Of a stretch of DNA of 64,000 nt, positions 15,001 to 18,000 are shown piece after piece. A program made the position numbers. Source of the DNA: a virus (taxonomy: Duplodnaviria > Heunggongvirae > Uroviricota > Caudoviricetes); IMG/VR virus record IMGVR_UViG_2721755660_000001, one strand, 5' to 3'. The first letter of the stretch is position 1; every line of letters starts with the position of its first letter.

Positions 15001-18000
15001 AGCAGGAGGGGATATGCAAAGAAAAACCCGGCGCATGGGCCGGGCTATTTATCTGGTCCTGTACTCATTCAGTAGAGTAGGGGCCAAGAAATCGTACTCC
15101 GTTGAAGTGAATAAGATGAGAAGGTGCATCAGCCACCCATACCTCTGTTTCCCATGCGATTTCACCAAGATATCGTCCCATGATGGAGCGATTTGGAAAA
15201 GCGGTCACATAGACAAGTCCGGCTGTTGATCCGGCAAACAGCCTGGCAAGCTCAGCATGCCGCTTCCCATCAACCGGTCCATGACTGGTGACAGACTCAA
15301 CCAGTAGCAGCCAGTTTTTCGCAGTAAAATGTAGCACCACATCTGGCATTTTACCGTGTGAATCCACATCAACACCTAGCCCGGCCAGCAGTGGAGCGTC
15401 GAAGTAGCCCCACTTTTCGCCAGTGTCGCCAGCATAGACCAGCACGCTACCCGGAGCAAAACGTGGGGCGAAGTCCTCTATTATGGCACGGATAAGTTCG
15501 CTGTGCTCGCCGGGACTGAGGGTTATTTGCTGGCCCGCAGCAATTTCAACAGGGATACGATTCTGTTCGCGCTCCTTAGCATAGCGGGTAACCAGCGTTT
15601 CACGCTCGGCTAAATAGGTTGCAAGGCTATCGTGCCATGCCGGGCTGCCGAAAGTGCGTAGCATGGACAGAGCAGCAGGTTCGATCTGATAAACAGCCTT
15701 CGGGCTGTTCACTGGGCGATCGGGCTTGTCCGGATTGTAGAGGGCTACTCCAGCAGCGCAGAACTGATGCATAGACTGGCGGCGGAATGTCTCACGAGTA
15801 TTGGGTGCGTAGACCTTGCCGTAGTGCTCCCGAACCCAATTCATGATTGGTGTAATGCCCACAAGCGGATTTTCCGCGTCGGCCCATGCTTTTCCCGGTG
15901 TGAGGTTCAGGAGTGCCAGCAAACACAAAGCAGAACGCTCATTCTGCTGCGCTCTGGGCAGGCCTAAGGATGCTATAATTTGCTGAGCGGCCTCAATATA
16001 ATCATTTTGGTTGTTCATGCAGTCAGAGCTCCTAGCTTAGCGTCAATATGTTCTTGCGTGAGAGTTTCTTGTTGCATAGCCCACTTGCCAAGCTCTATCA
16101 GAGTGTCACGGCTTGGGTACTTAATCATCTTGAGGTCGGTTGCATTGACCTGTGTATGCCCGTTGAATCGACGGAAATACTTATCCACTGCGGTAGTGTT
16201 CAGGAACACGGCCAAGCCACGGGCCAGCGCCTCGGGTAACCCATGTTTGTTCTCATGAAACACGTTCATGTGATTTTCAAATCCCAACACTGAATACTCA
16301 CTGAAGGTAGCAGGATCAACGACGCTTGCTACCACTCGGCGCTTTTCCTCCTTCGACGAGAAACGACGCACCACACAATAAAAACCGTTCGGGTAAAGCC
16401 ACTTTTCTGTCTCGTCGTTGCGCATGATTGCGTTGGGTTTCTTCAAACCTTCCACAGGCCAGACAGTGCTACTCATACTCAAATGGCTCGGGTAGATCAG
16501 GGGAACAGTTCCTTCTTCGGGCATGCTGCGCAAATGAGCTTTCAGTCGGAAATCAACTATCGGTCCGGTCGATACCTTCACGCCAATATCAGCCAGCGAA
16601 CATTGTACGGCGGATGATAACTCAATGGCGCTTTTCTCGTGCGTGGTCGGCACATGAATAAACCGCTCCGAATCGTCCGGGTACACAATTTGGTCAAATG
16701 GGTGTTCGTAGGTGACCAGGTCAAAAAAGCTATCATCGGTCGAAGTTGTGACTGTAACAGCCTCCTGAAGGCCTCCACGCTCCAGGCGGATGATAATATT
16801 TTCCTGCAACACATCGTCATCCCTGAAAGCTTTGCTACGTGATTCGAACAAATGAATATGGCGGATTGCTGCCCGCTCAAGTATGAAATTACGGAACGGA
16901 CGGTAATACGGTCCGTTGCAGAAACTACGTGGGATTATGGCCACTATCTGCCCGCCAGGTGCAACCTCACCTACAGCCAGTGCAACAAAGGCGGAATACA
17001 GATTTACCGTCTCGATACCGACAGTGCGAAGAGCCTGCCGGTGGGCTGACTGGCTATTGATCTTCTTGTAAGGCGGATTAAGTATTGCATGGGTATAACC
17101 TCGATCCTGTAGACCTTCGGCGGTTGCCAGCTCAATATAATCCCCTTCGATGATGCGGGGCGTCACTCTCCTGTACCCGGTTAAGTGCTTCGCAAGGTGA
17201 CCACACAGCTTTTTGTCTATTTCGTAGGCTGTTGCCTCGACAGACTCAAAGCCAAACTCGCCAACCAGCCAACGGTCGAGGAAGGCGCAAGACAGTGCGC
17301 CTACACCAGCGCCTGCGTCCAGTAGACGGCAAGTTTTCATTGTGCTCGGTGGAAACAAGGAGGCCATAAAACGGGCCACGCCAGAAGGCGTCATGAACTG
17401 GCCGAACTCAGCTTTGTGTTTACGCGCGGTACGGGGAGACAGCTCGCGACGCACGCTGTCTGCGACGTCTAGCTTTTGAAGCATAACTAATCCTCTTTAC
17501 GTGGCATGATGATGCCAACGTGCTTTTGACATCCTCCACATTCTGCAGGCGTGAAGGATGTCAAATCACTCTGTGAGCTCAATCAAAAGTCTCATCATTC
17601 CACTGCGATTTGATGACCTTTCCGACAAACTGGCAGTTTTCGTTACACTCAATCATGTCGAATCGTGGGTTGAGCGGCTCCAGGTACGCTTTACCGCTCT
17701 CACGAATGAATCGTTTGAAGGTAAATTCATCGCCGTTCATTCGGGCCACGCAAAAATCGCCATCCTCGATTTCCCGTTCAGGGTCAACGAGTATCAGCAT
17801 ACCTTCAGGGAAGCTGGGTTTACCACCCTGCGGTGCGGTCATTGAATGCCCCTTGACCTCCAGCCAGAACGACCTGTCACTGGCTTTTGTGGTGGTGGAG
17901 ATCCATTTAATCGCATCTTTTGCGGTGTACGAAATATCATCCATTGAGAATGCGCCAGCTTGTACGCAGGAGAGTAACGGATATTCGTAAGCGGGGACAC

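Follow-up and report, generated by a model that had tools for sequence, protein, structure and literature searches.

The 64,000-nt stretch of DNA analysed here, virus record IMGVR_UViG_2721755660_000001 of IMG/VR (hereafter the window), carries an inverted repeat between a cI repressor gene and the methyltransferase gene of a restriction-modification (R-M) system. The repeat forms a strong stem-loop in the cI-sense RNA, with the sequence CTGCAG in its loop. On balance, the results presented here favor an explanation in which this stem-loop at the 3' end of cI marks the left edge of a slot for exchangeable cargo genes and has its role as RNA in the cI-cargo transcript, with the CTGCAG being incidental.

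The stem-loop downstream of cI

The inverted repeat exists and is non-random. A preliminary description of the locus gave 9-nt arms, a 19-nt spacer and a CTGCAG, all of which are present (TGACATCCT at 17527-17535 and AGGATGTCA at 17555-17563). The repeat is, however, longer than described. The full arms are 15 nt (17525-17539 and 17551-17565), complementary at 14 of 15 positions, with 11 nt between them. As DNA, the repeat is a near-perfect 41-bp palindrome with TTGACAT within each arm. No other inverted repeat with 15-nt arms, one mismatch or none and a spacer of 3-25 nt occurs in the window, and 19 of 20 dinucleotide-preserving shuffles were without any such repeat (mean 0.15). The RNA of the cI-sense strand folds into a 16-bp stem and a 9-nt loop, with one internal U.G pair and a closing G.U pair, at -27.5 kcal/mol (z = -4.6), a value reached by none of 200 shuffles. 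The fold of the antisense strand is weaker (-21.0 kcal/mol, z = -2.7).

By its sequence, the window derives from a Stx2a-converting lambdoid phage, whose family is the genus Oslovirus according to the record of phage P13374. The region 14800-18700 has 99.1-99.4% identity to many Stx2a-converting phages, including P13374 and phiON-2011 (Escherichia coli O104:H4). Open reading frame and Pfam analysis, with which the annotation of P13374 agrees, gives the minus-strand order cI, inverted repeat, 40-nt resolvase remnant, methyltransferase gene (M), endonuclease gene (R) and terminator. The repeat thus lies between cI and the methyltransferase gene, as first described, in a gap of 94 nt. The features of the locus are as follows.

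17579-18292, minus strand: cI repressor gene, with HTH_3 and Peptidase_S24 domains
17525-17565, minus strand: stem-loop formed by the inverted repeat, 13 nt past the stop codon of cI; arms kept in prophages with other cargo
17543-17548, both strands: CTGCAG, wholly inside the loop
17485-17524, minus strand: non-coding leader of M, homologous to the last ~33 nt of a plasmid resolvase gene and the 9-nt gap after it; includes the M Shine-Dalgarno sequence and, at 17502-17517, a small hairpin
16015-17484, minus strand: M, N6-adenine methyltransferase of 489 aa, with an NPPY motif and an Eco57I-type methyltransferase domain
15065-16018, minus strand: R, BsuBI/PstI-family endonuclease of 317 aa, assigned with Pfam; 100% identity to R of P13374
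15025-15046, minus strand: intrinsic terminator, an 8-bp GC-rich stem followed by TTTTCTTT, which closes the cI-M-R unit
14894-14922, minus strand: PL-like promoter, TTTACA-17-TATATT
14857-14871, minus strand: boxB-like hairpin GCCCUUACACAGGGC, ~25 nt downstream of the PL-like promoter

The half-site of the repeat has no second copy with fewer than two mismatches in the window, including the OR (18293-18351) and PL (~14900) regions. A search of Rfam with the hairpin returned just sub-threshold matches to microRNA precursors, which are generic hairpins, and no family. In an arm scan of IMG/VR the hairpin turned up next to this cI family alone, at loci that had all been retrieved already through the cI 3' end. 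A mobile or repeated element was considered and rejected, since the scan gave no loci beyond those with this cI 3' end. Three arm matches in GTDB, about the number expected by chance, are unrelated hairpins from Firmicutes and Prevotella assemblies, and a metagenome scan gave no additional hairpin variants. No paper describing this hairpin was found in the literature. The hairpin is nevertheless of a familiar type, the stem-loops found where genes or modules meet in phage immunity operons.

The hairpin as the edge of a cargo slot

The sequence past the cI stop codon was compared among loci that share the cI 3' end, comprising 28 IMG/VR contigs, 13 metagenome contigs and several complete genomes. 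Prophages that carry other cargo, or in which the R-M genes are deleted, have cI and the hairpin arms in common with the window and diverge exactly from 17525. On the other side of this junction, the cassette has homologues on plasmids of Pseudomonas, Aeromonas, Serratia and E. coli (84% DNA identity), where the gene order is resolvase-M-R, the gap from resolvase to M is 9 nt and the M-R junction is overlapping. The plasmid homology spans M and ~40 nt upstream, which are the last resolvase codons, and ends at ~17523-17525, the edge of the hairpin. Because the arms are kept with other cargo and the plasmid homology ends at the hairpin edge, the hairpin belongs to the cI backbone and not to the cassette. 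Judged from these alignments, the arms predate the R-M cassette and the junction is at the end of the hairpin.

Translation of the resolvase remnant gives KHVGIIMPRKED before the stop in the window, compared with a terminal YKHVGVITPRQ before the stop in the plasmid cassettes. Since M is preceded by what is left of the 3' end of a resolvase gene, the cassette would derive from a plasmid-type resolvase-M-R module that broke within the resolvase gene on capture and lost its native upstream region. The leader also contains the small hairpin at 17502-17517 (minus strand GGCAUCAUCAUGCC), directly before the Shine-Dalgarno sequence of M. Compared with GGCGUCAUCACGCC in the plasmids, GGCAUCAUCAUGCC has a compensatory change from G-C to A-U, though the phage sequence is no longer protein-coding.

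The slot holds different genes in different prophages. That of KY176 contains genes for HicB and a Panacea-domain protein, and that of an IMG/VR locus (L032) encodes a 341-aa protein with no match in Pfam or PADLOC. In G8-type prophages, the sequence corresponding to window positions 15382-17524 (M and the first two-thirds of R) is replaced by ~160 nt of unrelated sequence. Homology among the cargo variants returns at one of two right-hand boundaries, 14900 (the PL-like promoter) or 15044 (the terminator). The hairpin is the exact point at which cargos such as R-M, HicB/Panacea and the 341-aa protein are swapped downstream of cI. By analogy, the slot after this cI family looks like a hotspot for defense and toxin-antitoxin genes comparable to the rex position of lambda.

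The hairpin itself differs among these prophages. In prophages without R-M the stem is extended to 19 bp and closed by a UUUG tetraloop (-34.8 kcal/mol). In a sister group whose cI has the same C-terminus, this position is occupied by an unrelated weak hairpin with a U-rich tail. Among the individual loci, slots with differing cargos are found at L007 2733-3975, L008 2022-3927, L032 5716-6741 and L014 11290-12170; across these four the cargos are HicB with Panacea, HicA/HicB, a small membrane protein and the 341-aa protein. The G8-type replacement is seen at L006 3524-4000 and is the same in L010, L011, L019, L047, L050 and L052. These loci have the hairpin form with 19 bp and UUUG, and a leftover 100-aa fragment of R is annotated as a gene.

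The adjoining system and the CTGCAG in the loop

The preliminary description supposed that the adjacent system might be PstI-like, which the protein comparisons bear out. R matches BsuBI_PstI_RE of Pfam (E = 4.6e-61), with a second (catalytic/N-terminal) domain at E = 1.2e-54, and REase_II of PADLOC (E = 1.6e-168). Its nearest relative of solved structure is SdaI. Compared with the proteins of P13374, a phage of E. coli O104:H4, R has 100% and M 99% identity. According to the passages on EcoGIII in PMC6602927 and PMC3893438, which cite Fang et al. 2012, this phage-borne system methylates (N6-methyladenine, m6A) and cuts CTGCAG. By sequence, the adjoining system is PstI/BsuBI-like, with CTGCAG specificity assigned through this literature on near-identical enzymes, and the recognition motif is the one that the preliminary description had assumed. 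The R-M gene content is not new, as it is the known EcoGIII of the O104:H4 outbreak phage.

Other assignments were considered. The recognition site of Eco57I/AcuI is CTGAAG and the Pfam domain of M is named 'Eco57I', but the near-identical enzyme was measured to recognize CTGCAG, so the agreement is a coincidence of naming. The prophage methyltransferase of Koudelka 2023 is a different, MT-A70 enzyme. With regard to control by a C protein through a C-box, there is no small open reading frame between cI, M and R that could be a controller gene.

The CTGCAG was first described as the exact center of the repeat. It is wholly in the loop, but the axis of the repeat is base 17545, whereas that of CTGCAG lies between 17545 and 17546, half a base away. 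Base 17545 is variable: on the plus strand it is G in the window but T in the majority of relatives, whose cI-sense strand therefore reads CTGAAG. The exact 61-mer of the window, with CTGCAG, was found in 8 of 133 E. coli genomes and in none of 97 phage records; the exact 61-mer with CTGAAG was found in 112 of the same 133 genomes. Most loci with the R-M genes have the CTGAAG loop, including P13374 (L001), C227-11 (L037), 95JB1 (L038) and RM13514 (L039, with one extra C). In an alignment from cI to R, CTGCAG was carried by the window and its nearest relatives, two at 1 difference and one at 12. The most divergent relative with the R-M genes, an outgroup at 136 differences, has A at the variable position and hence CTGAAG, indicating that CTGAAG is ancestral and CTGCAG derived.

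Methylation of CTGCAG is given as 100% in strains 95JB1 and 95NR1 and 98.8% in RM13514 in the relevant parts of PMC6602927 and PMC3893438. Three strains with measured CTGCAG methylation (98.8-100%), C227-11, 95JB1 and RM13514, have the CTGAAG loop. Full methylation in strains with this loop, together with the published restriction, indicates that EcoGIII works without a site in the loop. The frequency of CTGCAG in the window is unremarkable, with 13 sites against 18 +/- 3.8 expected, so the hexamer is neither enriched nor avoided. As part of the explanation favored here, the CTGCAG in the loop is probably incidental, a recent A-to-C change in a minority lineage that would have no conserved regulatory role. 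A one-base minority variant is not a built-in methylation switch. The M protein of the window differs from that of P13374 at four residues (V61L, L239R, H282L and A286T, window to P13374), and the sub-lineage with those four residues is the same one that carries the CTGCAG loop.

Transcription of the cargo and the role of the hairpin

A sigma-70-like consensus scan of 17485-17700 found no promoter with at least 9 of 12 matches between cI and M. A permissive scan with the same consensus found nothing over the loop, and its best match (8/12) overlaps the M Shine-Dalgarno sequence. A promoter in the repeat was rejected as a candidate: each arm has a perfect TTGACA, but no variant has a usable -10 at 15-19 nt. 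No U-tract follows the hairpin on either strand (the stem tail is AAAAGCACG in the sense and AATCACTC in the antisense direction), and an intrinsic-terminator scan was silent there. In each of three unrelated types of cargo, the first gene is encoded on the cI strand and begins only 25-41 nt past the hairpin. In KY176 this distance is 25 nt, which leaves no room for a promoter.

Since the cassette lacks a promoter of its own, M and R may be read through from the cI promoters (PRM/PRE), like rexA-rexB in lambda. In a lysogen, PRM transcripts would contain cI, the hairpin, M and R up to the terminator at 15046-15025. Polymerase would be expected to pass the hairpin because there is no U-tract, making the element an internal RNA hairpin of a polycistronic transcript. 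Most plausibly, the hairpin would set the ratio of cI to cargo, either as a barrier to 3' exonucleases that shields the cI segment or as a site of processing.

An RNA role agrees with the strand bias of the hairpin. In all six variants, the single mismatched position of the arms is a U.G wobble when read on the cI-sense strand and C.A when read on the other. The loop varies (9-10 nt, or UUUG with the 19-bp stem) and the arm spacing shifts by 1 nt, while the arms are kept. The sense-strand wobble, the variable loop and spacing, and the unrepeated half-site together favor an RNA role over a DNA palindrome bound by a protein. Of the features expected of an intercistronic stem-loop, the hairpin and its sense-strand bias are observed here; its co-transcription with the flanking genes we infer from the lack of a promoter and the spacing of 25-41 nt.

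Several observations weigh against this explanation. Covariation is thin and non-significant: among the few, closely related hairpin variants tested, 12 of 16 pairs are invariant, one shows a compensatory change from G-C to A-U, and 163 of 500 shuffles did equally well. A DNA palindrome would keep complementarity just as well. The form with a 9-10-nt loop is seen solely with the intact R-M cassette, which we attribute to linkage, although it could be an adaptation. A weak promoter-like sequence, TTGGCA-17-GAGGAT (17518..17490), lies downstream of the hairpin with its -10 overlapping the Shine-Dalgarno sequence, and could give some cI-independent expression of M. Finally, there is no comparable hairpin between cI and rexA of lambda, so the hairpin is without precedent at this position.

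A more specific version of the RNA explanation is put forward tentatively, as we consider it rather doubtful. The hairpin may be an element dedicated to marking the plug-in boundary, whose RNA stem-loop would insulate the cI mRNA from promoterless defense or toxin-antitoxin cargo, perhaps by preventing 3' decay or the loading of Rho, and thereby fix the repressor-to-cargo ratio. The opened 9-10-nt loop would then be an adaptation that tunes the dosage of M and R.

It is unlikely that the element acts instead as a DNA palindrome, either as an operator bound by a dimeric protein of the phage or the host or as a mere recombination-prone module boundary without a role in expression. The near-perfect 41-bp symmetry, the TTGACAT in each arm and the position of every cargo junction exactly at the end of the palindrome would fit. 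However, the arm spacing differs by 1 nt among variants and the center is unconserved, no like half-site occurs elsewhere in the window, OR and PL included, and the mismatch is tolerated as RNA on the cI-sense strand alone. A cI operator was rejected as a candidate, with OR (18293-18351) and PL (~14900) having no similar half-site.

The preliminary description also allowed that the repeat could be an attenuator hairpin. A hairpin in the transcript is indeed close to the best explanation, but without a U-tract it is unlikely to be an attenuator or terminator of the classical kind. We give a low probability to a cI terminator or attenuator at which most PRM/PRE transcripts stop, the cargo being expressed from the read-through fraction or from a weak downstream promoter. 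The stem is strong and begins 13 nt past the cI stop codon, and the sister cI group has its weak hairpin with a U-rich tail at the same position. TTGGCA-17-GAGGAT could supply the downstream promoter; it lies in the resolvase remnant, outside the repeat, and exceeds the plasmid sequence by three consensus matches, its -35 having improved from TCGGCG to TTGGCA through the substitutions seen in the small hairpin. Against termination are the tails AAAAGCACG and AATCACTC, the silence of the terminator scan, and the lack of room for a promoter ahead of the KY176 cargo gene. Moreover, 98.8-100% of sites are methylated in lysogens, indicating that the cargo is well expressed.

Methylation-sensitive autoregulation from a target site centered in the system's own promoter was the idea of the preliminary description. 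As a model with feedback on M and R or on cI, as in CfrBI, it is highly improbable. EcoGIII does recognize CTGCAG, and the site here is 59 nt upstream of the M start codon and half a base from the repeat axis. However, of the 133 E. coli genomes 125 lack the CTGCAG form, as do all 97 phage records with the same cassette and hairpin, and the strains with demonstrated full methylation (98.8-100%) and restriction are among those without the site. The outgroup makes CTGAAG ancestral, and sigma-70 consensus scans found no promoter in the repeat or its surroundings. M and R run in the same direction and overlap, rather than diverging about a shared control region, and the repeat, being cI backbone, is older than the cassette. 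The natural-variation data contradict this idea as a mechanism conserved among relatives and allow it to be set aside.

Neighboring features

The cro gene is at 18352-18591, divergent from cI. The M stop codon and R start codon overlap as ATGA at 16015-16018, suggesting translational coupling in which R is made only after M. The hairpin GCCCUUACACAGGGC at 14857-14871 is a candidate nutL, with a loop unlike that of lambda. The loop of the RM13514 type reads GCCCUGAAGAA, like lambda nutL boxB. A lambda-type boxB, in which a 5-bp GC stem closes a GNRA-like pentaloop, was rejected for this loop, as the 3' half (UGUG) cannot form the boxB stem and the phage's own boxB-like hairpin is GCCCUUACACAGGGC.

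Further along the minus strand, 14372-14447 matches the Hfq-binding RNA isrK of Rfam at 64.8 bits, which exceeds the gathering score. The match is flanked by sub-threshold matches to C4 antisense RNA and the c4-a1b1 target (window 14300-14460), directly upstream of a Rha/Ash-family gene (14343..13558). The isrK and C4-like matches near this gene suggest an antisense-RNA immunity module like that of P1/P7 in the early left operon.

Comparison with known systems

The closest known system is EcoGIII of the O104:H4 Stx2a phage. It has the same genes in the same position and the same layout of cI, hairpin, M, R and terminator. The hairpins of P13374 and C227-11 differ from that of the window by one loop base, with CTGAAG there and CTGCAG here.

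In CfrBI (Beletskaya et al. 2000, listed in PMC3874152; bioRxiv 10.64898/2025.12.04.692298), divergent M and R genes share a promoter region that holds the recognition site. The window resembles CfrBI in having its own recognition site in non-coding DNA upstream of the methyltransferase gene. It differs in that M and R are co-directional with the ATGA overlap, no promoter was detected and the site is missing in most relatives. A conserved own site, a promoter over the site and divergent M and R genes were each looked for at this locus, and none was found.

In lambda, cI forms an immunity operon with rexA and rexB. The layout of lambda (NC_001416) is the same in that defense cargo directly follows cI on the same strand, with a terminator before PL, and the cI promoters presumably drive this cargo in the lysogen. 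It differs in having other cargo and a cI-rexA gap of 112 nt with no long inverted repeat. The hairpin described here is specific to one cI family. As the cassette traces to a plasmid module that lost its promoter, the cI promoters probably govern expression of EcoGIII, and through it the methylation of the host and the exclusion of superinfecting phages. Should the hairpin fix the ratio of repressor to cargo, it would represent a small but general design feature of the defense hotspots in Stx-phage immunity regions.

Stem-loops formed by repetitive extragenic palindromic (REP) sequences, such as that of malE-malF, are said to stabilize upstream mRNA, reportedly in work by Newbury et al. in 1987. 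The hairpin downstream of cI differs from REP elements in being single-copy, with no REP consensus and no Rfam family. Like REP-type stem-loops, it is stable, lacks a U-tract and separates genes of the same direction, of which the upstream one is expected to give the more abundant product.

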